Sequence record: MT764208.1
Reading direction: 5' to 3' (one strand)
Source of the DNA: Escherichia phage JEP8
Length of the DNA: 64,000 nucleotides
Numbering within the stretch: the first letter of the stretch is position 1; every line of letters starts with the position of its first letter. The notes below the pieces were generated by a model. It made no database searches. It saw nothing but the letters and a program-made list of their open reading frames with translations, and was not told where the DNA came from. Below, in pieces: positions 4,782-35,284 of this stretch. Both the position numbers and the translations under genes were made by a program.

Positions 4782-5021
4782 ATGGTCTATAATATCGTCA
4801 TTGGCGCTTTGTCTAATTTCGGAATGAAATTATTGTCAAAGTTAATTAGTGAAAAGATGCTCACTAAAATTTTCTTCTATTGCGCTCGTCGTCTTGCGGC
4901 TTATACCAATACGCCAATTGATGATCGTTTTGTGGAAGAACTTTATAAGGAGTTTAATAAAGATCAGTCAGAAGATAGTAACGAGCAAGATAAATCTAGT
5001 GATAGTCAACTACCTAAATAA
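4782..5021 (+). CDS. small hypothetical protein (79 aa) between gp37 and holin
   Basis: AAGGAG Shine-Dalgarno 8 nt upstream of ATG; hydrophobic N-terminus, acidic C-terminus; no recognised homolog. Confidence 0.45.
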   Translation: MVYNIVIGALSNFGMKLLSKLISEKMLTKIFFYCARRLAAYTNTPIDDRFVEELYKEFNKDQSEDSNEQDKSSDSQLPK

Positions 5022-5054
5022 GAGTACACTGTCATAGTTATCTTAGGGCATTAT

Positions 5055-5711
5055 ATGCAAGTTTCTGAAAAAGGGAAAGACTTTGCTATCTCAAATGTCC
5101 TGCGCGCTATTTTCACAACTAAAAGCACGGAGTTGCTCGTACTTCGTGTTTTTGCTGCCGTCGTGTTGTCTATATTGGCATTTGTCGTTTATAGTAAAAA
5201 CGAGTTATTTGCGCTTTATAAAGAGACTCGTTATGAGACTTATGCTCACATTCTCCAGGTAGAGAAAGACCGCAATTTTGATAATGCAGCACAGGAGCAG
5301 TTACAGATAGTTCATGTGTCGGCTGATGCCGATTTTTCTGCTGTTTTTAGTTTTCGTCCGAAAAACCTAAACTATTTTGTTGATTTGGTGGCATATGAAG
5401 GAAAGCTACCACATACAATCGATGAAAAGAATTTAGGCGGATTCCCTATCAATAAAACGAGTGAAGAATATCGTAGACATCTTTTAGGTAAATCATATTT
5501 TACCGATAAAGATTTCCAGTATATTCCATCAAGAGAAAAGAAATTAGAGAATATCGATATAGGTTTCATGTATTCTTGTCCTATATTCAATCTCGATAAT
5601 GTCTATTCTGGTAGTATCGCCATTTCATGGAAGAATAAACCGGATATTGACATTGAGAATTTAGATACTCTTTGCAATCAATCTGCCAGAATCCTCGGAA
5701 GGATTAGATAA
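5055..5711 (+). CDS. t: holin t (218 aa)
   Basis: Same length as T4 holin; shared blocks EQLQIVH, SADADFSAV.SFRPKNLNYFVD, AYEGKLP, YSCPxFNLDN, ARILGR. Confidence 0.9.
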   Translation: MQVSEKGKDFAISNVLRAIFTTKSTELLVLRVFAAVVLSILAFVVYSKNELFALYKETRYETYAHILQVEKDRNFDNAAQEQLQIVHVSADADFSAVFSFRPKNLNYFVDLVAYEGKLPHTIDEKNLGGFPINKTSEEYRRHLLGKSYFTDKDFQYIPSREKKLENIDIGFMYSCPIFNLDNVYSGSIAISWKNKPDIDIENLDTLCNQSARILGRIR

Positions 5712-5716
5712 CTTAA

Positions 5717-5748
5717 AGGGGAAGCCTTTCGGCCTCCCCTTCTTTTTA
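5717..5748. terminator. bidirectional rho-independent terminator between convergent genes
   Basis: AGGGGAAGCC-TTTC-GGCCTCCCCT hairpin flanked by A-run and T-run. Confidence 0.55.
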
Positions 5749-5994
5749 TTGGCGCATAGACGCGCCTGAATCACATTTTGACGCTGTATGATGAAAACAG
5801 GTAGCGTACCAGTCATCGGCTTGTTTGTCTTCGTCAGAAAACGCGTAATTTCGTTGTACGCCGTTTTCTACTTTGACCAGTGCAATAGCTGTTTCTGGAA
5901 GATCAATCAATCGGACAAAATCACCATCTTCCCACTCTACACGAGCAATATCATAGCCCATCTCAAAGTATACAATCGCTTGTTCTAATTTCAT
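5746..5994 (-). CDS. hypothetical protein (82 aa)
   Basis: ORF track; first gene of the leftward cluster. Confidence 0.45.
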   Translation of the reverse strand: MKLEQAIVYFEMGYDIARVEWEDGDFVRLIDLPETAIALVKVENGVQRNYAFSDEDKQADDWYATCFHHTASKCDSGASMRQ

Positions 5995-6320
5995 TCTGGA
6001 AACTTCCCGTAAACATTCTCTGCCAACTTACGTGCATCTTTTACAATATCTTTCATGTAATGACTATAATTTTTAGCTAGATCAATGATGCAATCAACAA
6101 AGAAGTAATAGCGTCGCAGTGCGACCAGCTCAACATCTTCAAGATGACCATTTTCTCCAATCGCTGAAATATGTTTAAATTCCTTTCGGATCGCGTCCAT
6201 CGCTACATTAACTTCTTTTATAATATCTTTCGTATTATATGCACCTCGACTAATCAAAATTTTGGTTAGGTCTTCTGCTTTTTCGTGAAAGTTGTCAATT
6301 TCAAACTCGATCATAATCAC
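5991..6320 (-). CDS. hypothetical protein (109 aa), paralog of 6429-6761
   Basis: GAGGTGA Shine-Dalgarno; shares C-terminal ENxxGKF ending with the neighbour. Confidence 0.55.
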   Translation of the reverse strand: MIMIEFEIDNFHEKAEDLTKILISRGAYNTKDIIKEVNVAMDAIRKEFKHISAIGENGHLEDVELVALRRYYFFVDCIIDLAKNYSHYMKDIVKDARKLAENVYGKFPE

Positions 6321-6428
6321 CTCTCATAATTTCACGCTGTTGTTTCAACATTTTTTCGTGGTTTGCTAATTCTATACCTTGTAATAGCATAACCAGTGCA
6401 ATTTTCAATGATTCATCATCTTTCATAA

Positions 6429-6761
6429 TCAAAATTTACCGAAAATATTCTCTGTCATAATTCTTGCTTCGTCGATTATTTTCGTCATGTTCATGGTGTA
6501 GTTATGATCATTTAGTGCTTTAATAACAACGAGCAAGGAATCTAAAAACACTCGATACCGGGTATATTCTACGCTATTTGTGAATACCGATGTTTTCTCT
6601 ACTTTATCGATCAGATAGCCTAAAGCCGATAGCGCCTCGTTTACTTCCCGTGTTACTTTATCGGCGCTAAACAACACCGGATAAAGACGCGGTGTGATTA
6701 ACCGCGCTGCCTCTTTCAATTCGGTCGCTTTCCATGATTCATATTTGTCAAAATTAAACAT
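6429..6761 (-). CDS. hypothetical protein (110 aa), paralog of 5991-6320
   Basis: AAGGA Shine-Dalgarno; similar length and C-terminal motif. Confidence 0.55.
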   Translation of the reverse strand: MFNFDKYESWKATELKEAARLITPRLYPVLFSADKVTREVNEALSALGYLIDKVEKTSVFTNSVEYTRYRVFLDSLLVVIKALNDHNYTMNMTKIIDEARIMTENIFGKF

Positions 6762-21224: not shown

Positions 21225-22616
21225 TCAAATATAGTCTACCCGATAACGTGCACGGGTAACACCCACATATAATAACTGCATTGCCAGTTCAAAGTCAACA
21301 TTATCTGTACACATGCAAGGAGTATACAGGAACACGCGGTCTACGCTGATCCCTTGTGACTTATGAATAGTGCAAGCTGGTAATGCTTTTACATTCAGGA
21401 ACATACGTTTCATCGTCCAGAAAGAATCCCAATCTGGTTTAAAGTTTGGATTCTCTTTCTTCATTTCGCGATATTGTCCGGCGACCGTATTCAGGTAGAT
21501 AGAGAAAATGTTCTTCTGTCGTTGTTCTGTCAGAATATTGATTTCTACTAAATCCGGTTTGTCGGTAGTGATTCCGACTGCATCTAAACCAACTTTCTGA
21601 TTCAGGATCTCTTTGACTTCGTCATTATCTACGCTTTCCACTTTAAGAGTATACCCTAAAACTGGTTGCGGATCTACCCCCGTGCAACGTAATGTAAATT
21701 CGCGCGGTATAACCTCTTTAACTCGGATCATCTCACCGTTGTTAAAAATCACATTAGGAATCTTCTTCCCGCGTTCATCTCGCAGATATTCGATCAACGG
21801 TTCCTGAGTAACCAGAATTTCATCTACAATGACCGGATCTTCTGTATTGTAAATGCGCTTACGCACAATTTCATTGAGTTTTTCGACACTCTTATTAGTG
21901 TAAGCCAGAATACGGTTTTCTAACAGGTCTTCCGGCGTTTTAACTGCTTCAAAATAACGAGTCATAAACTCCGGCAGAGTTGAGCTATGGAATACACCCT
22001 CGTTACCGCACTGCTTTTCGAATACCCATTTACCGTTACGGACAGCGGTCGCCACATCAATTATTGGTGCATTAGATCGTTTAATCTCTGTAAGTTCTAC
22101 ATTATGAAACCTTTCATCGGTGAAGAAAGGAGAGATCGACGTTGCACCGCTCGGATCAACTGGTCGTAACTGGTACAGATCACCCACGGCAATAATAACA
22201 ATTCGACCGTTGATACTCTTCATGAGAATATCAAATAGTTTCTTATCGACCATACTCGCTTCATCAACAATGATGATCTGAACATCATCTAGCTTAGGAG
22301 TATCTTTTTGCTCAAATACTTGAGTATCTTCATAGTTGGTCGGGTTTAGTCGCAGTAGTGCATGTAAAGTAAATGCTTGACGACCTACCGCTTTACTCAA
22401 AACTTTTTTAGCCTGGTGGGTAGGCGTTGCCAAAACCACACCAGTTACACCACGGCGGACCATTTCCTGAACAATGAATTTCATCATTGCGGTTTTACCA
22501 GTACCCGCCGCACCACGGACAGTTGTATGCTTCTTTTGTTCAATGCGTTTCATTAGAACATCAAAAGCATGTTTTTGCCCGTCTGTTAACATATCGAAAG
22601 TTAATACTCTGCTCAT
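21225..22616 (-). CDS. dda: Dda DNA helicase (SF1)
   Basis: DGQK.AF..VMK, GAAGTGKT, ATPTHQAKK.LSK, SPFFT, ELTE.KRSNAPIIDVAT.VRNGKW, LYVGVTR blocks match recalled T4 Dda. Confidence 0.9.
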   Translation of the reverse strand: MSRVLTFDMLTDGQKHAFDVLMKRIEQKKHTTVRGAAGTGKTAMMKFIVQEMVRRGVTGVVLATPTHQAKKVLSKAVGRQAFTLHALLRLNPTNYEDTQVFEQKDTPKLDDVQIIIVDEASMVDKKLFDILMKSINGRIVIIAVGDLYQLRPVDPSGATSISPFFTDERFHNVELTEIKRSNAPIIDVATAVRNGKWVFEKQCGNEGVFHSSTLPEFMTRYFEAVKTPEDLLENRILAYTNKSVEKLNEIVRKRIYNTEDPVIVDEILVTQEPLIEYLRDERGKKIPNVIFNNGEMIRVKEVIPREFTLRCTGVDPQPVLGYTLKVESVDNDEVKEILNQKVGLDAVGITTDKPDLVEINILTEQRQKNIFSIYLNTVAGQYREMKKENPNFKPDWDSFWTMKRMFLNVKALPACTIHKSQGISVDRVFLYTPCMCTDNVDFELAMQLLYVGVTRARYRVDYI

Positions 22617-22930
22617 TATCCTAAAATCCTCACCTTGCGAACACAGATAGTATTGAGTTCTCGCCGTACCCGTTCTTTTTCATATTCAGGAATTTTATAT
22701 TCGATACCATCCCGAACAATTTCAGAAGACCGGATTATGCCAAATTTTCGTTTAGGTACAACCTTGTATTTCGGTTCACCCGCCAATAGACTCTCACAAT
22801 AATCTATCTGATCACACATTGACGCTAACGCAGCATCATGTGTTTCGCAAGTTAGGACGCGACCCTTCGCGTCCACTGAGTATTGAAAGAATCCGTCTTT
22901 ATCACGATAACATACAGCAAATACATGCAT
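22616..22930 (-). CDS. hypothetical protein (104 aa)
   Basis: Overlaps dda start; AAGGTAGG Shine-Dalgarno. Confidence 0.5.
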   Translation of the reverse strand: MHVFAVCYRDKDGFFQYSVDAKGRVLTCETHDAALASMCDQIDYCESLLAGEPKYKVVPKRKFGIIRSSEIVRDGIEYKIPEYEKERVRRELNTICVRKVRILG

Positions 22931-23685
22931 TATAAACCTACCTTCGCTTTCATCAATTCAATCCACGACGCATCAATCGGAAGCCCGTATTTCACGCGTT
23001 CTTTTTGTGCTGGCGTTAAGTTCTCATACTTAGAAAGAGATTCAATCAAAACGCTGGTATATTTTAGCACGATTTCGGTATTGTTTGCAATAGCCTTAAG
23101 TTTTTCTTCTTTCTTGTTGATTTCGCTAAGGGCTTGCTTGAGATCTGCAATTTTCTGATAACGTTCTTCCATACGGAAGAGAGTATTTTTAATCGCTCGC
23201 TCGGCTGCCTCTGCTTTCTCCGGTTCGTTGTGCTTTTTATGGCGCTCGATTGCTAATTTCTTTTCTTCGATTGCCATTTCCTGATTTTTGATGCGATTCT
23301 CGTTAAGTTCGATCCACTCGATGTACTTCGCACGTAGGGCAATTTCATCATCAGAAAGTTTACCGTTAGTTCCTAGTTCCTGGATCTCTTTAAGAGATTC
23401 GATAGTGTGATTGCCACGGAAAGAATTGTATTTCAGTTTAACCGGAATTACATTGCCATCAACATATCCCAGATTGCAATCAATGCGCTCTAAGGAGAGT
23501 CCATCATCACCTTCACCGAAAGCCTCACCGGAATAGGCGCAATGAGTCTGACGGTAAATGTTACGCACAGTGACTAAGCTCATAGAGAAGTCTTTGTTGC
23601 GACGTGAAGCACCAGCCATGATAGAGTTCAGCCGGAAAACAACCAGCGCCAATTCTTCGTTAGATTTAAAAGCAAACAGTTTCAT
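22930..23685 (-). CDS. hypothetical protein (251 aa), C-terminal coiled coil; positional counterpart of T4 srd (not sequence-verified)
   Basis: ORF track; Shine-Dalgarno present; heptad-rich charged C-terminal half. Confidence 0.5.
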   Translation of the reverse strand: MKLFAFKSNEELALVVFRLNSIMAGASRRNKDFSMSLVTVRNIYRQTHCAYSGEAFGEGDDGLSLERIDCNLGYVDGNVIPVKLKYNSFRGNHTIESLKEIQELGTNGKLSDDEIALRAKYIEWIELNENRIKNQEMAIEEKKLAIERHKKHNEPEKAEAAERAIKNTLFRMEERYQKIADLKQALSEINKKEEKLKAIANNTEIVLKYTSVLIESLSKYENLTPAQKERVKYGLPIDASWIELMKAKVGL

Positions 23686-23713
23686 AATTGATTCTCCTTA
23701 GTTGGTATGTGTG

Positions 23714-23743
23714 TATTATTGTCTATCTGGTTTGTGCTGTCAA
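23714..23743 (-). promoter_or_regulatory. sigma70-like early promoter (-35 TTGACA, -10 ATAATA-like)
   Basis: TGTGTATTAT -10 region class. Confidence 0.4.
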
Positions 23744-23746
23744 CAC

Positions 23747-24250
23747 TTAAATTAAAGAAAATTTGTAAATCTCTATCAGATCGCCATTACACGCGTAAAC
23801 TTCCTCGATCTCATCAAGGATCATGGTCGTCCCTGTCTTGTATATGCACTCGCGCTCATCTGCCAACATAGCATACAAAGACAGTCGAGTAGTCGGATTG
23901 TCATACTCTTTAGACACCACTCGGTCAATAGCATGTTCGTAATAATTCATGCAAGGCTTGGTAGGTTTTATTGCAATAATCTTTCCTGTTGCATAAACAT
24001 CGGTTGCAAAGTCCTCTGCTGTTGATTGCAGTGGCGTAAAGCTCATAGGACGCTCTACAACGAAAGAATCGCCTACAATTAAGGTATCCAGCTTACGGCC
24101 TTCTCTTTTGCTCACACCGCGATACAAGGCTTCATGATGCACTAACCGCTCAGTCTTTTCAATCAATCCATTAAGGATCGACATATCGATATTTTCTTTA
24201 GAGTTCATCACCTCATCAATGATGTTAAGTTCTTCTGGTGTAAATTGCAT
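23747..24250 (-). CDS. putative ADP-ribosyltransferase (ModA/ModB/Alt-like), tentative
   Basis: Ordered YRG ... SFT ... ERE triad resembling the R-S-E ART motif; position after gp56 as in T4 mod genes. Confidence 0.4.
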   Translation of the reverse strand: MQFTPEELNIIDEVMNSKENIDMSILNGLIEKTERLVHHEALYRGVSKREGRKLDTLIVGDSFVVERPMSFTPLQSTAEDFATDVYATGKIIAIKPTKPCMNYYEHAIDRVVSKEYDNPTTRLSLYAMLADERECIYKTGTTMILDEIEEVYACNGDLIEIYKFSLI

Positions 24251-26822: not shown

Positions 26823-27458
26823 TCAAGCGAATGTAGAAAGCAAATGTTTTGTTTCTTTCAGTTGTCGTTCAAGATCTTTGCGTTTCTCTTTAAGTTGCAT
26901 TTTAGCATTATTTCGCTGTTTTTCAACATCTTTATCAATGCTCTTATTCCAGTTATCAATATCAGAATAAGTTGGCATACCCAATTCTAGACCTAATGCG
27001 GTTGGATACAGGGTAACAGTCCATAAACCGCTAATCTTCTTAAATAGGTCTGGGTGTAGTGTACTATCTACATCTTCCGGTGTCAACTCTTTTTCTTCTT
27101 TCAGTGGTGGGATCTCGTCATATGGTTCCAGCGCATTTACTTTAATATCAGATACCTCATCAAAGAATCCGCGTACATCCGCAGGAAATACACAAGCAAT
27201 TTCCCAACCGTGATCACGCAGAGAAGTAATATTTTTCACTCCCCCACCATGTGTGATGATTGATGTGACATTGCCATCGAGGTCCACCGAATTTACGAGA
27301 AATGGCTTATCGTCTGTCAGATCATTATAAAACTGTGCTTCGGCTGTAGTCATCTCCAGAAACAGATCTCGGATCGGACGACCATCAGGTGCGTTACCTT
27401 CCTTGAGAGTATAAAAGCGACTTACGATCCATTTTGGCGGTAAAGCATTAGCGGTCAT
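26823..27458 (-). CDS. hypothetical protein (211 aa)
   Basis: AGGAGA Shine-Dalgarno. Confidence 0.55.
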   Translation of the reverse strand: MTANALPPKWIVSRFYTLKEGNAPDGRPIRDLFLEMTTAEAQFYNDLTDDKPFLVNSVDLDGNVTSIITHGGGVKNITSLRDHGWEIACVFPADVRGFFDEVSDIKVNALEPYDEIPPLKEEKELTPEDVDSTLHPDLFKKISGLWTVTLYPTALGLELGMPTYSDIDNWNKSIDKDVEKQRNNAKMQLKEKRKDLERQLKETKHLLSTFA

Positions 27459-27508
27459 GTTATATCTCCTATCAAATCATTCACCAGCGCCCCGCAGGGC
27501 GCATTTTA

Positions 27509-28921
27509 TTAGAAAGTCATGGTATTTGCTAGCTCGTCGAGTTTTTCGCGTTTCTCGGCTTGCTGTGCGCTTTGTGGTTTAACTTGTGCATTCTCCTGAT
27601 CTGCGATCTGGTTTGGTACTTCATACCAACGCTGATTGCCTTTCTTCACACCAACGTTAAACCGTGAATAATAGTTCTTATCACCGTAACGAGACTTGAT
27701 CTGCTTCATGAGTTGGACGCCCATTTTAGCCAGGTCTTCGGTTTCGATAACACCCAACATAAAGTCGGCAGTAGCCGGAAGACCTGCTGATTCAGCGGTA
27801 TCACTCATGTTAAGGTCGGAAGCATCCCAACCCGCGCGGGTAGTCTGTGCCGCAGTCCAACCAACAACATCCCACTTAACAAAAAATCCTCGCAGTTCTT
27901 CCGCAATCGCCTTAACTAGTGTGTAACTATTTTCAGAGTATACACGCAAGCGAGACGATGCGCAAATCCCCAGATAGTCAACAATCACAACATCAGGTTT
28001 AAACTGTTTCTTGAGTCGCAATTCATTCATTAACGCCTCAAAGTGATTGGAGTTCGCGCCACCAGTCGGATACTGCTTGATCATCAATTTTCCAACCGGA
28101 CGATCTCCGATCTTCTTATTCTTAACACGCTTCATGCGTGCGGAATATTCCGCAAAAGAAACATTACCATTATCCAATTCATCTAATGTAATGTCAAGCA
28201 AGTTTGCGTCGATACGTTTTGCTACTACATGCTCTGCCATCTCCATTGAGATATACAATACATCATAACCACATTCCATATAATCCGCAGCAAGAGAACA
28301 CAAGCCAAGCGATTTACCAACGTTTACACCAGCAAGCAACACATTTAGCGTTTTTCTTTCCGCCCCTCCTTTCGTGATTTTATTCAACATCGGCAGCTTA
28401 AACGGGATCTTATTCGCCTTAGTCTGATATAGCAAGAATCGTTTTTCAAAGTCATTAAACCAGTCATGACCTACATCAGAATCAAACGTAATGGATAGTG
28501 CTTCCTGCATGATCTCAGGAATAGCACCCTCACTCGGCAATTTCTTATTCTGTTTCTCTTTTGGTAGTTGTGCGTTCGCCTGAATCTCTAGCGCCCGTGA
28601 CATTGCATTATACATGGCACGGTCACGAATAAATTTTTCGGTTTCCTTCATTAACCAATCAAGGTCTTCCGGTGTATTCTCAAGCGAATCAAGAAGAGTT
28701 TTAGCCCCTTCATATGTTGTCTGATTGCCTCTCTCCTTGTCTAAAGCAATCTGTAATGCAGTTGGCGTAGGAATATTGGAATATTCGTCTACGTGCTTTT
28801 TAATCAGCTTATAAATCAGTTTTTCTTCGTCTTCGGTGAAGTAGTCCGCTTTAAGGTGAGGCCATACATTCGTAAAGAATGCGCCATTGTAAATCAACTG
28901 TGAAAAGATAGTTTTAATCAT
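27509..28921 (-). CDS. 41: replicative DNA helicase gp41 (DnaB-like)
   Basis: Walker A GVNVGKS, SMEM, RecA-like fold; 470 aa vs 475 in T4. Confidence 0.9.
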   Translation of the reverse strand: MIKTIFSQLIYNGAFFTNVWPHLKADYFTEDEEKLIYKLIKKHVDEYSNIPTPTALQIALDKERGNQTTYEGAKTLLDSLENTPEDLDWLMKETEKFIRDRAMYNAMSRALEIQANAQLPKEKQNKKLPSEGAIPEIMQEALSITFDSDVGHDWFNDFEKRFLLYQTKANKIPFKLPMLNKITKGGAERKTLNVLLAGVNVGKSLGLCSLAADYMECGYDVLYISMEMAEHVVAKRIDANLLDITLDELDNGNVSFAEYSARMKRVKNKKIGDRPVGKLMIKQYPTGGANSNHFEALMNELRLKKQFKPDVVIVDYLGICASSRLRVYSENSYTLVKAIAEELRGFFVKWDVVGWTAAQTTRAGWDASDLNMSDTAESAGLPATADFMLGVIETEDLAKMGVQLMKQIKSRYGDKNYYSRFNVGVKKGNQRWYEVPNQIADQENAQVKPQSAQQAEKREKLDELANTMTF

Positions 28922-28923
28922 AC

Positions 28924-29235
28924 TTATCCCCCAACTACACGCATAACAAAGGTCTTAAGTTTATACCAGAAAGTTTCCTTTTTCAACTTTTCTTCTGCTT
29001 CTTTGATCTGCGCGGTTAACGCCTTAATGATGTGAGGATATACCACATCACGATCTGACGGCGTGGAGTAGTCGACCACAATACCTTTAGTGTCTGGATC
29101 GTATTCAACATTATGAATATAGACAATATGATGTTCTCCCTCTTCATCAACAATTATCAGTTCCTGAATAACTGTCTTCATTGCTTCTTGAATCAAGCCG
29201 TGTGCTTCTTCTAAACTTGTTGGTTTCTTATCCAT
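28924..29235 (-). CDS. hypothetical protein (103 aa), positional counterpart of T4 gene 40
   Basis: GAGAGGA Shine-Dalgarno. Confidence 0.5.
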   Translation of the reverse strand: MDKKPTSLEEAHGLIQEAMKTVIQELIIVDEEGEHHIVYIHNVEYDPDTKGIVVDYSTPSDRDVVYPHIIKALTAQIKEAEEKLKKETFWYKLKTFVMRVVGG

Positions 29236-29261
29236 AATATAATCCTCTCAGTAAAAATCTC

Positions 29262-29290
29262 ATTTTACTACTTTAATTATTCTATGTCAA
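29262..29290 (-). promoter_or_regulatory. sigma70-like early promoter (-35 TTGACA, weak -10 TAAAAT)
   Basis: 17 nt spacer. Confidence 0.35.
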
Positions 29291-30053
29291 CAAATTTCCA
29301 ATTTGGAAAGTCTGGACACATACAACGACGGCGAACGGTTCCGCGCTCGTTTCCTAGTACCTTAGATACTTCCGATACAGATTTATAGATCACACCATCA
29401 ACAGATACAGCCTTTCGGTCTTTTCTGTTTTGTTTCTTGCTCTTTTCTCGTCTGGCTTCGACATTCTCCGAATCATTCCATTGTCTCTTTGCTGTCTCGC
29501 GGGAAGATATTGTCTTTTGTTCTTTAACAATATCTTTAACAAGTTGTTCTTGTCCTGTTATCTTCGCCCACACATTAACAGACTGAATAGCATTAGCCTC
29601 ACTCATTCCCCAACGTTTACCGGATATATTCTTACGACGAACGCGTAGAAATTCGTTAAAGACTTCTTCGCATTGGTGCATATAATCACGAAAACCATAT
29701 TTCTTAGCCCATGCCTCTTTAATTGCACCAGACATATTTTCGGCAATACGTCTACGCACCCATGCATACTCCTTATTATTGCGACCGTGACTGGTCATAC
29801 ACATCATACGTGCAGCCATAATAAGACCAACATTCTTAGGATACATTTTAGCTAACAATAAGTGAGCGGTAAAGTGTTCCTCCGGTGTCAATGGAACGAG
29901 ATTTTCCTGTTCATCCGTGCCGCCCATACAACGTGGTTTAACGTGATGGATCTCTATGTATCCGGTCGGCTTCTCTCGGTTTCTTGCTCGTTCAATCAAT
30001 CTTTCGTAATGTGTTTTGTAGTTCATGTGATCCTCCATATGAAAAAGGGGCAT
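29277..30053 (-). CDS. free-standing HNH homing endonuclease (true start may be an internal ATG at 30026)
   Basis: EIHHVKPRCMGGTDEQENLVPLTPEEHFTAH is a classic HNH motif; inserted between uvsX and the gene 40/41 block. Confidence 0.75.
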   Translation of the reverse strand: MPLFHMEDHMNYKTHYERLIERARNREKPTGYIEIHHVKPRCMGGTDEQENLVPLTPEEHFTAHLLLAKMYPKNVGLIMAARMMCMTSHGRNNKEYAWVRRRIAENMSGAIKEAWAKKYGFRDYMHQCEEVFNEFLRVRRKNISGKRWGMSEANAIQSVNVWAKITGQEQLVKDIVKEQKTISSRETAKRQWNDSENVEARREKSKKQNRKDRKAVSVDGVIYKSVSEVSKVLGNERGTVRRRCMCPDFPNWKFVDIE

Positions 30054-30077
30054 AAAGCCCCTTAACTGCCACTGATA

Positions 30078-31148
30078 TTATGCTAACATATCCTCGACTT
30101 CTTTGTCAACTGCTTCGTCGCTGATAACTTGACCTAACTGATAGTGATCGTTGATCGCTTTCTGGAAGTGTTCATTGGTCAGAAGTGGTTTCCAAAAATC
30201 AACACTATCCGTTTCTTTAGCGCGGAACTTGCGGTCTTCGGTTTCCATTTCTCCTGTTTCAGCATTCAGGATTGAGCGAGAATACCAACCATTCGACGGT
30301 TTAACAATCCAACCCAACTCGATAGCCAGTTCAAGCAATCCAGAGTAAGGATCAATGCCACCGCTAAAGGTTACGCTAATCGGGAACTTCGATTTTTCTT
30401 TAACGGTTCGTGATTTTTCCGCATTCAGGATAAAATCATAACCAGTAATTTCGGTTCCTTCTTTCTGCTGACGACGGCTAATAATGAATACTTCGTTTGC
30501 ACTGTACATACCACCAGTACCACCCGACATAATCTCTTTCGGATACAGAGACATTTCAGAGTAAGTATGGTTAATAGCGATGCACGGGATATCATTCATA
30601 GTCAGATAAGGTGTCATCATACGGAACAAGCCTTTAAGTGCTTTAGCTCGCGTCATATCCTGCGCTGATTTCTCATTAATCGCGTCTTCAACTTCTTTTT
30701 TGCTTGCCAAGTTACCGATTGAGTCGATAAAGATGATCACTTTATCTTCACGGGTAATTTGCTCAAGCTGGTTCATGATTTCAAATTTAAGTTCTTCGAT
30801 GTTCTTGATTGGAACATGCACCACGCGATCAGGATCTACACCCATAGATGACAGATAAGCGGACGTAATACCGAACTCAGAATCAAAGAACAAACACGCC
30901 GCATCAGGATTCTGTTTCATGTATGCACTAACACAAGTTAATCCCATGTTTGATTTAAAGTGCTTAGACGGACCAGCAAAGAAAATCAGACCAGATTGAA
31001 AGCCCTTTTTAAGATCACCTGAAAACGCAATATTCAGCATCGGGATCTTAGTGCGAGTATTTGTTTTTTCGTTAAAGAAGCTGGATTTAGACAGTACCGC
31101 AGTAGTTTTCAGGGTAGAGTTCTTTTTCAGTTTTTCCAGTACAGACAT
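30078..31148 (-). CDS. uvsX: UvsX recombinase (RecA-like)
   Basis: RTKIPM.NIA.SG, SGL...AGPSK.FKSN.GLT, FYDSEFGIT.AYL.SMGVDP.RV.H, IDS.GNLASKKE.EDA.NEK, CIAINHTY, KSRTVKEKSKF, GGIDPYSGLL match recalled T4 UvsX. Confidence 0.9.
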   Translation of the reverse strand: MSVLEKLKKNSTLKTTAVLSKSSFFNEKTNTRTKIPMLNIAFSGDLKKGFQSGLIFFAGPSKHFKSNMGLTCVSAYMKQNPDAACLFFDSEFGITSAYLSSMGVDPDRVVHVPIKNIEELKFEIMNQLEQITREDKVIIFIDSIGNLASKKEVEDAINEKSAQDMTRAKALKGLFRMMTPYLTMNDIPCIAINHTYSEMSLYPKEIMSGGTGGMYSANEVFIISRRQQKEGTEITGYDFILNAEKSRTVKEKSKFPISVTFSGGIDPYSGLLELAIELGWIVKPSNGWYSRSILNAETGEMETEDRKFRAKETDSVDFWKPLLTNEHFQKAINDHYQLGQVISDEAVDKEVEDMLA

Positions 31149-31159
31149 TATTAATACCT

Positions 31160-31348
31160 CTATTCAGTTAATCCGTAATACTTTAATTGCTTCATTGTTA
31201 TTCGATCTTTGTAGTGCTCTTGAATTAACTTTTTCATCGCATCAACATCGATCGTCACAAATACTTCGTTGCTGTGATTTCCGTGAACTTTCTTGAAATG
31301 CTCTATGCCTTCCTCACGTTCACGTTTAATCTTTTCAATGTCTCTCAT
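31160..31348 (-). CDS. hypothetical protein (62 aa)
   Basis: Trimmed to ATG downstream of hairpin; the ORF-track GTG extension runs into the hairpin. Confidence 0.45.
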   Translation of the reverse strand: MRDIEKIKREREEGIEHFKKVHGNHSNEVFVTIDVDAMKKLIQEHYKDRITMKQLKYYGLTE

Positions 31349-31366
31349 AATATATTTCTCACATTG

Positions 31367-31393
31367 GCGGGTATCGTAACCCAACACCCGCCA
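31367..31393 (-). other. GC hairpin GGCGGGT..ACCCGCC immediately after a promoter -10 (transcript 5-prime stem-loop)
   Basis: 7 bp stem, 13 nt loop. Confidence 0.4.
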
Positions 31394-31420
31394 TTATACA
31401 CACTTTATCTTAAATGTCAA
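31393..31420 (-). promoter_or_regulatory. sigma70-like early promoter (-35 TTGACA overlapping gene 43 stop, -10 TATAAT)
   Basis: 16 nt spacer. Confidence 0.45.
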
Positions 31421-32886
31421 ACAGGTCCGTAAGCGATGCCACCTTTTCATATTGCAGCTTTGCAGCCGTGGTAATGTTCTCCAGTGGTTTGACGAAAGTC
31501 TTATTAAACAACAAAGGCCAGTCTAACCACTTTAACACCTCGCTTTCAATCTCTGGAGGAATACGAGTACCGGACAACCAACCAAAACAGATTTCTCCAA
31601 ACGGATTTCGATCTTTCAGCGGTACAATCATAACCTTCTCGCCTTCACGAATCGGATCTAGTCCGAATTTTCGAGCATTACGATTATAACACAATACACT
31701 CTTAACCGCATACGGACAACCCTTAATCGGATACCCGTTTGAATCGCTGTATTTCTGTAGGTTGTTTGCAGATGATACCGCAGCAACATCAAGATAGTCA
31801 AGTTTTCTAAATTCTTGCTCAAAAATACCGTAGTATTCCTGCAATGACTCTTCACCTTCCTGCAACATACGGCGAATACATTCTTTCAGTGATTTCTGAC
31901 ATGCTTTCGGGGTGGAGCTACGTTGCGTTTCCAAGCCCATGATTTTTAGCTTAGGTTCAGCAAAGCGCGTTCCTTCCATATCCCAAACATTAAGAGCATA
32001 ACGCTTTTTACCAGTCCAGAATCCACCGATACCCGCAGATTTCAATGGAGGACCAGCAATTGCCTCACGGTCCATAAACATCAAGTGCTCATAGTTGTTC
32101 ATGTACTCGCATAACTCGCGATATCCCTCGTCGATAATAGGTTCCATTCGATGTTTACCGAAATTATCAAGGAAGTCAACAAGTTTTTCGGTATCGTCGA
32201 AACGGTCTTCCCCACCAACCTTATCAATAACATTGTTAACCAGCACATAAACGGAGTCAGTATCACAATAACGAACATATGCAAAATCAGTTGTTCCGCA
32301 AAGCTCGTTTAAGTATTCGTTAATCTTACGCTCAATCCACTGAATTGCAAGCTGACCGAACAGTGTGATCGCACTAGCGTTACGGAGATCATAAAAACGG
32401 AATTTAGGATTCCCCAACGCACCATAAAGGGAGTTGATCAAAACTTTTCGAGAAAGCTGGTTTGTATTGCACAAGATCGACTCGTCTTTACATTCATCCA
32501 GCAATTTCTCTAAGGCATCTTTACTTAATTCAGAAAGCATCGATTTAAACGCTTCGTCAAAGTCGTGACGCACTTCAACGCTATAGCTAATGGTTCCCCC
32601 ATAAACATGATTTTCATCGTGTAGAATCGCTTTACAGAGTTCAGCATTGCGATCACATGCCAACATCATGTTTTTGTACTGCTTACGCTGATCGAATACC
32701 TTTTTAATCTCAATCGGTACGATACCATGAATATCTTTTCGATACATCCATCCGTTAGGCGAGCAAGAATACTCATCACTAGGACGTGGTGCAGTTTTAT
32801 TGATATACTCGTGCATCGGTGCAGCATCAAAAGATCCAGCGATTGTTTCCGGCGAAATGTTAACCTGACGGATGATTGATGGATAC
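31410..32886 (-). CDS. 43: DNA polymerase gp43, exon 2 (from second half of motif A, YPSIIRQ..., to stop)
   Basis: In-frame conserved YPSIIRQVNISPETI lies directly upstream of the ORF-track ATG with no start codon; downstream blocks incl. YCDTDSVYV match recalled T4 gp43. Confidence 0.8.
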
Positions 32887-34000
32887 CATTATGTTCAGCG
32901 CGGTTCGCTACTCCCGCGCCCGTTCTCTTGCGAACTGCTACATGTCACCATGTAGATCAGACTATATCACATTCTCATAGAGAATCCTGCCATTTCGAAT
33001 CGCTTGATTCTACTCTACTCGGTTCGTTACCCTTTCGATAGTCGTTGAACAACTGCATCTTTAAGCTCATTTTGATCAAACGGTGTTCTCTTACAGTACC
33101 CGCTATAATTCTTAGCAAAAGGTTTCTTCTTACCAAAGATCTCTTTTCCTGAATTATGTGCTTCAACAAGAAAATTCACCATTTCATCAAATGTGAAACT
33201 TGCAAATTTAGCATAAGTTTCATTACGTTTTGACATTATTTTACTCATAACTTCCGGTCGTTTAGACGCTGAATTTTCGCGTTTCTCGCCAGTATTAAAT
33301 GATACCAACTCACCGGAAACATATCTAGGATCATCACAACTAACTCTAAACCGATTTCCTTCATTATCCTTAACGATAACAGTATTCTTTAGCTTTTCTG
33401 CCATAGAATCAAGACCTTTTCGTATAGTGTCCTCATCAGCCCCGAAATATTTCTTTCCGCTCATATCGGTTCTGGCTTTTCCGGTCTTGTTTTCGGATAT
33501 TTTCAGTCTAACTTCCTCTCGCTTGGCTGGGTTATTGTCTCCAGCGAATGCATCTTTGGTTAACGCCTTCACTTTATCGTCATAAGATCCTCTAGAGATG
33601 AAAGCATATGCTCTCTTGCATTCACCGTTATTGAATATTAAGCACAATAACCGATGCGCCTCGACGTGGTCTTCAAACTTAAGCCTAACAAGATTCCATT
33701 TATCTAACCGATATTCAGGGAACATTGACTTCGGGCATATATGATGCACCTCGGAATATTCTTCACCCTGATACGGATTAGACACCAGTTTAATGTAGTC
33801 GTTTAATGCTTCCTCGTTATGTATTTCGTACTTTCTTAAAATGTCTTTCATCTCGCGCCTCCAATGTATATCAATATCTATATACATTATAAGACACGTT
33901 AGCTCAAAATGCAACTGCTGCTGATTGTCTCCTTAGAGATTTCCCAGCAATTAAGCAGGTTATTCGATCACTGTCACCAGTGAAAGCCCCATATCAGTTT
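32887..34000 (-). mobile_element. group I intron (1114 nt) in gene 43 carrying an HNH homing-endonuclease ORF
   Basis: P (AAUUGCUGGGAAA), Q (AAUCAGCAGC), R (GUUCAACGACUA), S (GAUAUAGUCUG) elements; IGS GGGG pairs with exon CCCU; 5-prime exon ends in U and intron ends in G; P9-like hairpin with GUGA loop. Confidence 0.75.
33027..33851 (-). CDS. intron-encoded HNH homing endonuclease (274 aa)
   Basis: GGAGG Shine-Dalgarno then ATG (MKDILRKYE); EVHHICPKSMFP..WNLVRLKFEDHVEAH HNH motif; 3-prime end overlaps intron R element. Confidence 0.75.
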   Translation of the reverse strand: MKDILRKYEIHNEEALNDYIKLVSNPYQGEEYSEVHHICPKSMFPEYRLDKWNLVRLKFEDHVEAHRLLCLIFNNGECKRAYAFISRGSYDDKVKALTKDAFAGDNNPAKREEVRLKISENKTGKARTDMSGKKYFGADEDTIRKGLDSMAEKLKNTVIVKDNEGNRFRVSCDDPRYVSGELVSFNTGEKRENSASKRPEVMSKIMSKRNETYAKFASFTFDEMVNFLVEAHNSGKEIFGKKKPFAKNYSGYCKRTPFDQNELKDAVVQRLSKG

Positions 34001-35202
34001 AGGGAAGTAAGGTCAAAGCTCATCATCCAACGGTAAGCATTCGGCACAGGTTCTTTTACAAATGCGCCTGGATAAGTCTGCTTAGGCTGTATCTTATTTT
34101 CCGGTACTACTTTACCCTCTGCTTTCAGAGATCCGAAGATAATAGCATCCCATACCTTCATCGGGTTATATACATGGTTAAACTTAATTTTCGCATAGAA
34201 ACATAGACTATACACAAGATCGATAAATCCACGCTTTTTATCAATCGCCAGCACACGGTCAACGTCGCCGATGTTATAATCGATGTAAAGTTGATGGTTG
34301 TCATCACGCAATTTCTTTAATGGACCATCATAATCAACCTTACCGATTCCTGTCTCATATTCAGCAACATAATCTAATGCATATGTTGGTTGAGTCGTAA
34401 AGCTAAATTTCTTGTACAGGTCAATATAATCAAGGCTTTCGATCCCCATGATCGTAAATGCTTCACGCTCGTTGCCAAAATCATCCTGTGAGATTCTGGA
34501 TTTAATCTTACCGCACGGGCTTAGACGGTTTGCCGTTCGACTTCCAAACTTATTCCCGATACGTTTAATGATATATGGAATATCGAATGTTTCTGTGTTC
34601 CAGCCAGTGAAACCAACGGGTCGGTTTTCCTCAAAGAATCGGATGTATTCTAACAGCAATTCATCTTCTGTGTCATAAACGTTATAAACAACGCGCTCCA
34701 CAATATCAGGTCGAAGAATAGACTTGCTTGCTTCCCAGATTTCACCGTTTTTTCCTTTCAAATCAAATACAAAGAAACGATCATGTAAGGAATCATAATG
34801 CGTAATTGCATCGATAGGATATTTCGCTTCTTCTGGTTTAGGAAATTCTGGGGCAGTGACCTCAATATCAACCCACGCTACACGGATTTTATTTCGGTCA
34901 TATCGAATCTCGCCTTTATATGTATCGGACAGATAGGAGATGATAAAATCATCCATCCCTAGTGCCTCTTGCCCCATTTCCCCCATCTTTTTACGCCATT
35001 TGTTGGCCTCGTTCATAGATGGGAATTTTTTAGCAATGCAAGGCTTGCCATAGATATCTTTATAATTCGTAACCATACCAGGCGCGGCATGATGAAATAA
35101 AGTTGGCGTATATTCAACGTAACGCTCTTGTTCTTGTCCAGCATCATCAATATAACGCTCGTAGATCTTATCACCCACTCGCTCACATGACAGAAAATAC
35201 AT
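34001..35202 (-). CDS. 43: DNA polymerase gp43, exon 1 (N-terminal and exonuclease domains up to ...SFDLTSL)
   Basis: ERYID, FPSM, DIEVT, IDAITHYDS, FTGWN.E.FD.PYI, YDGP..KLR..NHQ.YI.YNI.DV, WDAIIF.SLK, PGAFV.EP, MSFDLTSL match recalled T4 gp43; start at ATG after GGAGGAG. Confidence 0.8.
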
Positions 35203-35284
35203 AATATAAACTCCTCCACTTACGAAAGACACTCATTATAGGGGAATCGACTTGGTTTGTCAATACCCCTATCCCATCAGTATC

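Follow-up and report, generated by a model that had tools for sequence, protein, structure and literature searches.

A free-standing Mob-type HNH homing endonuclease gene between uvsX and gene 40 of Escherichia phage JEP8, with uvsX as its probable target

The 64,000-nucleotide (nt) stretch of Escherichia phage JEP8 DNA analyzed here (sequence record MT764208.1; hereafter, the window) contains an uninterrupted open reading frame (ORF; 29277..30053, minus strand) that encodes 258 amino acids (aa), as counted from its first ATG. A previous inspection of the bare sequence (hereafter, the original prediction) had described it as a free-standing gene for a mobile HNH homing endonuclease, located between uvsX and the gene 40/41 block, absent from this position in the T4 gene order and probably targeting the uvsX or gene 41 region of relatives that lack it. 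The neighbors, all on the minus strand, are as described there (Table 1). In the T4 record, uvsX and gene 40 overlap with no gene between them, and in phage RB49 the spacer between these genes is only 55 nt long. By its sequence, JEP8 is an RB49-like T4-type coliphage of the genus Krischvirus: the 5-kb stretch around the ORF matches 58 Krischvirus records at 90 to 98% identity, with the best match (97.7%) in Shigella phage Sf20.

Table 1. Features of the uvsX-gene 40 locus in the window and of the uvsX tract linked to the endonuclease gene
Feature	Position	Strand	Basis
Coding sequence of the free-standing HNH homing endonuclease, 249 aa plus stop	29277..30026	-	ORF; the same 750-nt coding sequence is annotated in Sf20 and KFS-EC
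In-frame upstream extension MPLFHMEDH, probably untranslated	30027..30053	-	First ATG in terminator loop, without Shine-Dalgarno sequence
Shine-Dalgarno sequence GGAGGA, 4 nt ahead of ATG 30026	30031..30036	-	Sequence inspection
Intrinsic terminator hairpin of uvsX, directly upstream of the endonuclease gene	30045..30063	-	Terminator scan and RNA folding
HNH (beta-beta-alpha-metal) catalytic motif, aa 25-55, EIHHVKPRCMGGTDEQENLVPLTPEEHFTAH	29862..29954	-	Invariant residues, model
C-terminal I-TevI-type helix-turn-helix DNA-binding module, aa ∼198-245	29292..29435	-	PF20987
Outward σ70-like promoter TTGACA-17-TAAAAT (putative), towards gene 40/41, overlapping the last endonuclease codons	29262..29290	-	11/12 consensus match
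Inserted cassette, 787 bp, replacing “TAG” of the RB49 empty site	29250..30036	.	Junction alignments with RB49 and Sf20
Diverged tract (intergenic spacer plus uvsX codons ∼188-356), read as co-converted donor DNA	30037..30585	-	Divergence, change points
Change point, window/Sf20 haplotype	uvsX nt 581, codon 194
Change point, KFS-EC/pEJ01 haplotype	uvsX nt 569, codon 190
Change point, L003 haplotype	uvsX nt 563, codon 188
uvsX codons 197-206, densest block of differences, leading candidate recognition/cleavage region	30531..30560	-	Allele comparison
uvsX (RecA-like recombinase), upstream neighbor, probable target gene	30078..31148	-	Pfam T4_UVSX_C 5e-33, PHROG 97 1e-94
Gene 40 (head vertex assembly chaperone), downstream neighbor; its Shine-Dalgarno sequence abuts the cassette	28924..29235	-	Pfam Phage_head_chap 1e-24, junction alignment
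Gene 41, next after gene 40	27509..28921	-	Pfam and PHROG

The ORF encodes a protein conserved at the amino acid level. It matches the “homing endonuclease” family PHROG 655 with an E value of 3e-51, and its homologs reach E values of 1e-159. For the alleles of the window, Sf20, and KFS-EC, the ratio of nonsynonymous to synonymous substitution rates (dN/dS) is 0.10 to 0.14 in both halves of the protein, so the gene is under selection and is not a decaying remnant. The hairpin of the uvsX terminator, AAGGGGC-TTTAT-GCCCCTT with a T-run behind it, has the first ATG (30053) in its loop, while the third one (30026) has GGAGGA ahead of it. The product therefore most likely starts at ATG 30026 and comprises 249 aa; this is also the start annotated in Sf20 and KFS-EC. 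The 258-aa start was rejected for its position in the terminator loop, and the two counts are in good agreement with the originally proposed length of 250 to 258 aa. A sequestering hairpin at the ribosome-binding site is not claimed, as the region of the Shine-Dalgarno sequence and start codon forms just a marginal 5+2-bp stem, with an overall z-score of -1.5.

BLASTP comparison with the proteins translated from the T4 record, one of the checks suggested with the original prediction, yielded MobB (52% identity over 114 aa, E value of 8e-35), MobE (54% identity over 76 aa, 7e-26), MobD (1e-20), MobC (9e-19), and a fragment or remnant of MobA (2e-7), with the homology confined to the N-terminal ∼110 aa. 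By sequence, the protein belongs to the Mob family of HNH homing endonucleases of T4. The motif quoted in the original prediction, EIHHVKPRCMGGTDEQENLVPLTPEEHFTAH, is indeed present in this part of the ORF; in an alignment of 35 homologs, residues E25, H27, H28, P31, C33, G35, G36, N42, L46, H51, and H55 are invariant, and H27-H28...N42...H51 (together with H55) align with the HNH motifs of McrA and Cas8-HNH. In the AlphaFold2 model (predicted local distance difference test score of 92), residues 25-28 and 43-46 form strands and residues 48-61 form a helix, so that the motif, as modeled, would form the strand-strand-helix HNH core at aa 25-61. The remainder of the model is helical and closes with a small strand-plus-helix-turn-helix (HTH) module. 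The basic, DNA-binding-like region predicted at the C terminus corresponds to a match to the I-TevI DNA-binding domain (PF20987), which covers profile positions 5-51 of 51 and scores 28.8 bits against a cut-off of 27 (E value of 1.1e-6). Fold searches with the whole model gave weak matches, the best of which include the I-TevI DNA-binding domain, I-HmuI, and HNH domains. Only the N-terminal domain is common to the JEP8 protein and hundreds of metagenomic proteins (55 to 60% identity), which have different tails, such as NUMOD3 or zinc-finger domains; a modular organization of this kind has been described for the Mob enzymes (PMC2988022). The protein is thus predicted from its sequence to be a nuclease, introducing either a nick or a double-strand break.

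Searches of other databases added little. The PDB sequence search returned only motif-level HNH matches (E values of at least 0.035), the NCBIfam search of the protein gave nothing meaningful, and in the PADLOC search there were only marginal matches to HNH motifs, DpdF at 2.8e-4 and mREase_IV at 1.1e-3. HNH domains are common in packaging-associated nucleases, in anti-phage or anti-host proteins, and in defense components, and the weak motif-level similarity to McrA, Cas8-HNH, and IscB could be taken to indicate a function of this kind, unrelated to homing. Such a role is hardly credible for a protein whose PADLOC matches are marginal (E values of at least 3e-4), whose architecture and closest homologs are those of the Mob homing endonucleases, and whose gene is missing from 93% of the close relatives, and so is not essential, and lies in the replication/recombination cluster rather than near the terminase. 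A search for Rfam introns between positions 29150 and 30150 gave no match even at E values of up to 1. The group I intron and intein contexts were rejected, since the ORF occupies an intergenic spacer with no intron-like RNA nearby, in line with the free-standing nature of the gene.

The distribution of the gene is sporadic. It is found in 4 of the 58 Krischvirus records, namely Sf20, KFS-EC (two records), and pEJ01, where it occupies the identical locus and encodes proteins 94 to 96% identical to that of JEP8; these copies, including Sf20 gp166, already listed as “HNH homing endonuclease” (AUV63985.1), are known by annotation only. The remaining 54 records have an empty site and align as two pieces (84% coverage) around the gene. 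The cassette sits exactly between the uvsX terminator and the Shine-Dalgarno sequence of gene 40, and a hairpin homologous to the uvsX terminator is also present at the empty site of RB49. The gene is thus far from universal at this locus, and no conserved non-nuclease function was seen for it; its sporadic occurrence among close relatives and the precise empty site support its mobility, as originally proposed.

In other phages, the same site holds diverged copies (55 to 62% identity). The copy in a Krischvirus-like metagenomic contig (L003; Logan SRR7892483) is 55% identical to that of JEP8, and the one in a more distant 153-kb T4-like phage (L004; Logan SRR29026054) is 59% identical. The latter copy (region 5001..5760) is broken by a stop or frameshift that leaves 163 aa, with the C-terminal HTH readable in another frame, and such degeneration matches the predicted life cycle of these elements. 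An additional ORF of 243 aa with unassigned function lies between the broken copy and gene 40 of this phage (regions 5001..5760 and 5865..6596). The next relatives, at ∼35% identity, are free-standing HNH genes located between uvsW and uvsW.1 of T-even phages, exemplified by the gene annotated as mobD in phage PST. No relative came up when IMG/VR was scanned with the single protein, and a metagenome scan recovered 55 loci that share the N-terminal nuclease domain only, with no further uvsX/40 copy among them; this metagenome scan also yielded the contigs L067 and L058, described below.

A promoter scan of the locus detected no recognizable promoter-like site ahead of the endonuclease gene. As the gene directly follows the uvsX terminator, without such a site, it presumably depends on read-through of this terminator for its transcription, as mobE does. 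Near its 3′ end, the cassette carries a putative outward promoter for genes 40 and 41. The -35 hexamer of this promoter-like sequence overlaps the last codons of the endonuclease, and both hexamers and their spacing are invariant in Sf20, KFS-EC, pEJ01, and L003, despite the different coding sequence of the L003 copy. Promoters for downstream genes are often embedded in seg and mob genes and are thought to favor the retention of these genes (PMC2988022). This conserved site, the low prevalence of the gene (4 of 58 records), and the degenerate state of the L004 copy could all be accommodated if the nuclease no longer homed and the cassette were kept as a promoter for genes 40 and 41, or as a gene for a co-opted protein, with the altered uvsX sequence described below being a relic of an old transfer. 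That seems improbable: all catalytic residues are intact, the dN/dS values of 0.10 to 0.14 across the whole ORF point to selection on the protein and not just on a 30-nt promoter, and three haplotypes of the uvsX tract in genomes that are otherwise 95 to 98% identical imply repeated recent transfers.

The evidence on the target comes from the uvsX side of the insertion, in an alignment of four carriers and five non-carriers. In every carrier, the 3′-terminal ∼500 nt of uvsX are 18 to 22% diverged from the non-carriers, whereas in the 5′ part of uvsX the divergence is 3 to 5%. Along the alignment, the uvsX side is 15 to 20% diverged from the insert to about position 30600 and falls to 2 to 4% beyond it. 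The gene 40/41 side is at the background level, with 0 of 49 nt differing beside the insert and 0.8 to 3.7% over 600 nt. The synonymous divergence (dS) is 0.77 to 1.26 in the tract versus 0.05 to 0.11 in gene 41. In a two-rate change-point fit, which defined the tract boundaries listed in Table 1, the likelihood ratios were 57 to 82 in the carriers and 4 to 14, at inconsistent positions, in control pairs of non-carriers. Within the tract, the three carrier haplotypes are ∼19 to 26% apart from one another and therefore represent separate imports.

In the phage collection, the linkage of the variant uvsX tract with the endonuclease gene is complete: the window-type tract is found in Sf20 only and the KFS-EC-type tract in KFS-EC and pEJ01 only, while exactly 54 records match the canonical 78-mer of RB49 at 95% identity or more. 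Searching a database with the C-terminal half of UvsX yielded fragments and split-intein forms only, with no close full-length alleles. In a separate case, uvsX of phage TB34 (L010, 3292..4361) is annotated as two coding sequences; the sequence is 1 nt shorter (1070 nt), which probably reflects a sequencing or assembly frameshift and not biology.

A block consisting of the 3′ half of uvsX and the ORF could conceivably have come from a diverged phage through ordinary recombination, with the ORF as a passenger. T4-like genomes are mosaics, and in the window itself a uvsX region resembling that of Sf20 occurs together with gene 43 sequence that is 100% identical to that of the cassette-less phage ELT4. 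However, ordinary recombination would leave unexplained the same endpoint in uvsX and the exact endpoint at the gene 40 Shine-Dalgarno sequence in three independent blocks, the carriage of a Mob-type nuclease under purifying selection as a passenger, and the fact that the variant uvsX alleles never occur without the gene; it is accordingly considered very improbable.

Because the diverged tract sits on the uvsX side only and is perfectly linked to the gene, homing into uvsX is the favored explanation, and the tract looks like a population footprint of co-conversion during homing. Of the two targets named in the original prediction, uvsX is thus the one suggested by the linked tract, and gene 41 is not, given the background divergence on its side. 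Since the tract is one-sided and its distal boundary is shared, the nick or cut would fall at about codons 185-215 of uvsX (window ∼30500-30590), 0.46 to 0.55 kb from the insertion. The differences are densest in codons 197-206, which are taken here to encode the DNA-binding loop L2 of this RecA-like protein. The sequence of this segment is ETQEMFSKTV in RB49 and T4, SEMSLYPKEI in the window and Sf20, SSMDLYPKDI in KFS-EC, and LTQELYSKTV in L003; L004, with its broken endonuclease copy, has the window-type version, SEMSLYPKEI. With a 61-aa stretch of UvsX that includes L2 as the query, 1,422 phage records were matched; Sf20 alone among them has the window-type L2.

The same endonuclease could instead recognize a site at or beside its insertion point, in the uvsX terminator, 3′ end, or spacer, with the long tract produced by exonucleolytic gap widening or later recombination and the L2 variants simply representing the sequence of the donor lineage. 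Many homing endonucleases do recognize the empty insertion site, the carrier haplotypes are most alike within ∼160 nt of the cassette, and fixed differences between carriers and non-carriers cluster at the junction, where a TTTAT terminator loop faces TACGT and there is a 3-nt indel (30053-30077). However, gap widening from a cut at the junction should convert both flanks, and divergence on the gene 40 side does not exceed the background (0 of 49 nt; 0.8 to 3.7% over 600 nt). The distal boundary is common to the three haplotypes within 18 nt, just 5′ of L2, which would not be expected from random resection. Further, carriers and non-carriers are 42 to 52% different over 50 nt at the L2 block, yet this block is the best-conserved stretch between RB49 and T4 (80% nucleotide identity). 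A target at the junction is therefore judged unlikely.

Taken together, these data favor, with a probability of about 80%, a free-standing homing endonuclease of the T4 Mob family, with an N-terminal HNH domain and a helical DNA-binding region that ends in an I-TevI-type HTH, homing into uvsX. The gene would be expressed from transcripts that read through the uvsX terminator, with translation from its own Shine-Dalgarno sequence. In a mixed infection, the protein would nick or cut uvsX of a co-infecting relative that lacks the cassette, most probably in or beside the conserved L2-coding segment, ∼0.5 kb upstream from where the cassette inserts. With the carrier genome as the template, recombinational repair would then copy the donor 3′ part of uvsX, along with the endonuclease gene, into the recipient. 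The carrier alleles differ from those of the non-carriers at every candidate site, both the L2 block and the terminator loop, and the uvsX allele of the carrier would be immune because its segment around codons 185-215 has been rewritten. The promoter-like site at the 3′ end of the cassette could restore the transcription of genes 40 and 41.

Several observations weigh against this explanation. The standard Pfam HNH model (PF01844) scores the protein at only 17.6 bits, under the gathering threshold of 21.4 (E value of 0.0045); the similarity to the T4 Mob proteins is strong, and this model covers the Mob subfamily poorly. The prevalence of the element is low (4 of 58 records), so it is not sweeping among the sampled phages, and the carrier isolates represent just two independent haplotypes, supplemented by two metagenomic ones. 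The tract of the window and Sf20 contains an ∼85-nt patch that is identical to RB49 (uvsX codons ∼225-252, 30400..30480) and is not seen in the KFS-EC or L003 alleles. This patch could come from either a patchy conversion tract or later back-recombination, and because of it the history of the window/Sf20 tract must include further recombination. Finally, the target has been deduced solely from patterns of polymorphism, and the differences next to the junction (terminator loop and 3-nt indel, 30053-30077) could mark the true site.

The proposed cycle has precedents in T4. Co-conversion from a cut inside a neighboring gene has been shown experimentally for SegF and SegG (PMC2988022) and for MobE (PMC2790892). 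MobE nicks the neighboring gene nrdB beside its own insertion site and is inherited together with flanking DNA (PMC2790892), which is the behavior proposed here. Like MobE and MobB, the JEP8 protein has a homologous N-terminal nuclease domain, starting with MNY..Y..LI...HH..PRCMGG..D..NLV.LT..EH..AH, and its gene is free-standing in a spacer between conserved genes, in the same orientation, and variably present among relatives. It also resembles them in having no recognizable promoter of its own and presumably relying on upstream transcription past a terminator, with a putative promoter for the downstream gene after the ORF (PMC2790892, PMC2988022). It differs from them in the locus, uvsX/40 versus nrdA/nrdB or alpha-gt, in the C-terminal two-thirds of the protein, an unrelated helical region with an I-TevI-type HTH, and in the host, which is a Krischvirus (a phage with non-glucosylated C-DNA) and not a T-even phage; the activity of the JEP8 enzyme is predicted from its sequence.

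A precedent for the target is provided by SegA, which is also encoded by a free-standing gene adjoining uvsX (segA 23570..24235 beside uvsX 22386..23561 in the T4 record) and cuts uvsX (PMC2988022), making uvsX an established homing target in T4-like phages. SegA, however, is a GIY-YIG nuclease with no BLASTP match to the JEP8 protein; its gene lies upstream of uvsX, across from the position of the JEP8 cassette, and its double-strand break leaves 2-nt 3′ overhangs. SegG starts conversion at a cut some distance away (PMC2988022), and a cut inside the neighboring conserved gene, hundreds of base pairs from the endonuclease gene, with co-conversion of the interval, has been described by Liu et al. 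(2003) and Belle et al. (2002), both cited in PMC2988022. In the carriers, the tract extends ∼0.5 kb to one side and stops at a fixed point, which would fit this distant-cut model; in contrast to the site deduced here from polymorphism, the sites of SegF and SegG, which are GIY-YIG enzymes, have been mapped experimentally. I-HmuI, the HNH nicking endonuclease of Bacillus phage SPO1 (PDB 1U3E), and the enzyme that carries the I-TevI DNA-binding domain (PDB 1I3J/1T2T) are both intron-encoded and show only 13 to 24% identity to the JEP8 protein, weak structural scores, and a different middle region. A literature search found no paper on the target of this gene or on the linked uvsX tract; a Krischvirus paper notes just the variable numbers of HNH genes (PMC11611945).

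A more specific version of this scenario, which remains tentative and somewhat doubtful, is that the endonuclease targets the L2-coding sequence itself, so that 8 of the 10 L2 residues in carrier phages (ETQEMFSKTV to SEMSLYPKEI) would have been rewritten through escape from cleavage or import of immune alleles, with a selfish element diversifying the core of the recombinase. Circumstantial support for an L2 target comes from a split-intein fracture at the same position of L2. In the metagenome contig Ga0102930_1022037 (L067, 1..1669), uvsX is fractured at L2 by a split intein (..VVSGG|C.. / ..HN|TG.MYSAD..), and a Mob-type HNH ORF of 237 aa lies between the uvsX halves. UvsX C-terminal fragments that start with the C-intein are found in Salmonella phage SEA1 and Pseudomonas phage PspYZU05, and this split-intein observation extends to the proteins P0185, P0155, P0121, P0147, and P0175.

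The window contains a second interrupted locus. Gene 43, for the DNA polymerase, consists of two parts (33994..35232 and 31410..32816) interrupted in motif A (SFDLTSL|YPS) by a 1114-nt insert (32896..34009, minus strand) that carries a second, different HNH ORF (33027..33914, PHROG 12434). In a permissive Rfam scan, the segment 32938..33198 gave a full-length match to a group I intron (31.1 bits, short of the cut-off of 50; E value of 1e-5), and the reading frame is restored if the plausible splice sites ..CCCU| and ..AAUG|G are used. The insert is therefore probably an endonuclease-bearing intron and not the split polymerase that is annotated in GenBank (“DNA polymerase x2”). Of ∼60 Krischvirus records, 11 have this insert, and a truncated form exists in phage JSE, for which Petrov et al. 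(2010) suspected an intron with a relic endonuclease gene (PMC2993671). The exon codons beside the insert differ synonymously from those of RB49.

DNA polymerase genes are also interrupted elsewhere. In L003 (2310..2564), gene 43 is called as two ORFs (567 and 317 aa) that are ∼290 nt apart, and the gap matches the Rfam family Intron_gpI above the threshold (58.7 bits, E value of 2e-14). The L003 gene thus has a group I intron without an ORF, at another position in gene 43 than the insert in the window. In a 164-kb metagenome contig (L058, 3547..7098), a Mob-like HNH ORF of 260 aa splits the DNA polymerase into an N-terminal piece of 136 aa and a remainder of 772 aa, providing another instance of a polymerase gene interrupted by the Mob-type nuclease family.

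Relative to the sequenced isolates, the window genome is mosaic (32500..34400 versus 27000..32000). The gene 43 intron region matches that of ELT4 at 100% identity, and ELT4 has a canonical uvsX and no uvsX/40 cassette, while the uvsX region of the window is closest to that of Sf20, whose gene 43 is uninterrupted. Gene 40 of the window is two codons shorter than in RB49 and Sf20 (103 versus 105 aa) owing to a substitution at 28924 (site 28924..28926), and with this early stop it no longer overlaps the start of gene 41.

The cassette between uvsX and gene 40 belongs to a familiar type of mobile element, of which it is an unremarkable but clear case; its gene already carries the annotation of an HNH homing endonuclease in Sf20, and these findings will not surprise a specialist. 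They nevertheless add a natural case of intronless homing, resolved in detail, from phages other than the T-even ones, and here the population footprint narrows the probable target to a few dozen base pairs with no experiment needed. The cassette explains the chimeric 3′ half of uvsX in some Krischviruses; as uvsX is a common phylogenetic marker for T4-like phages, trees based on this gene would be misled by that chimerism. Sf20 and RB49 are available isolates and lend themselves to work on the way in which gene conversion is promoted by nicking Mob enzymes, a step that has been named as an open question in a review (PMC2988022). If the tentative reading of L2 is true, the carrier alleles would supply natural UvsX L2 variants for recombinase biochemistry, and L2 would be a recurrent battleground for mobile elements, as in L067, SEA1, and PspYZU05. 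In that case UvsX, the enzyme that carries out homing, would itself have been diversified in its DNA-binding loop by a selfish element.

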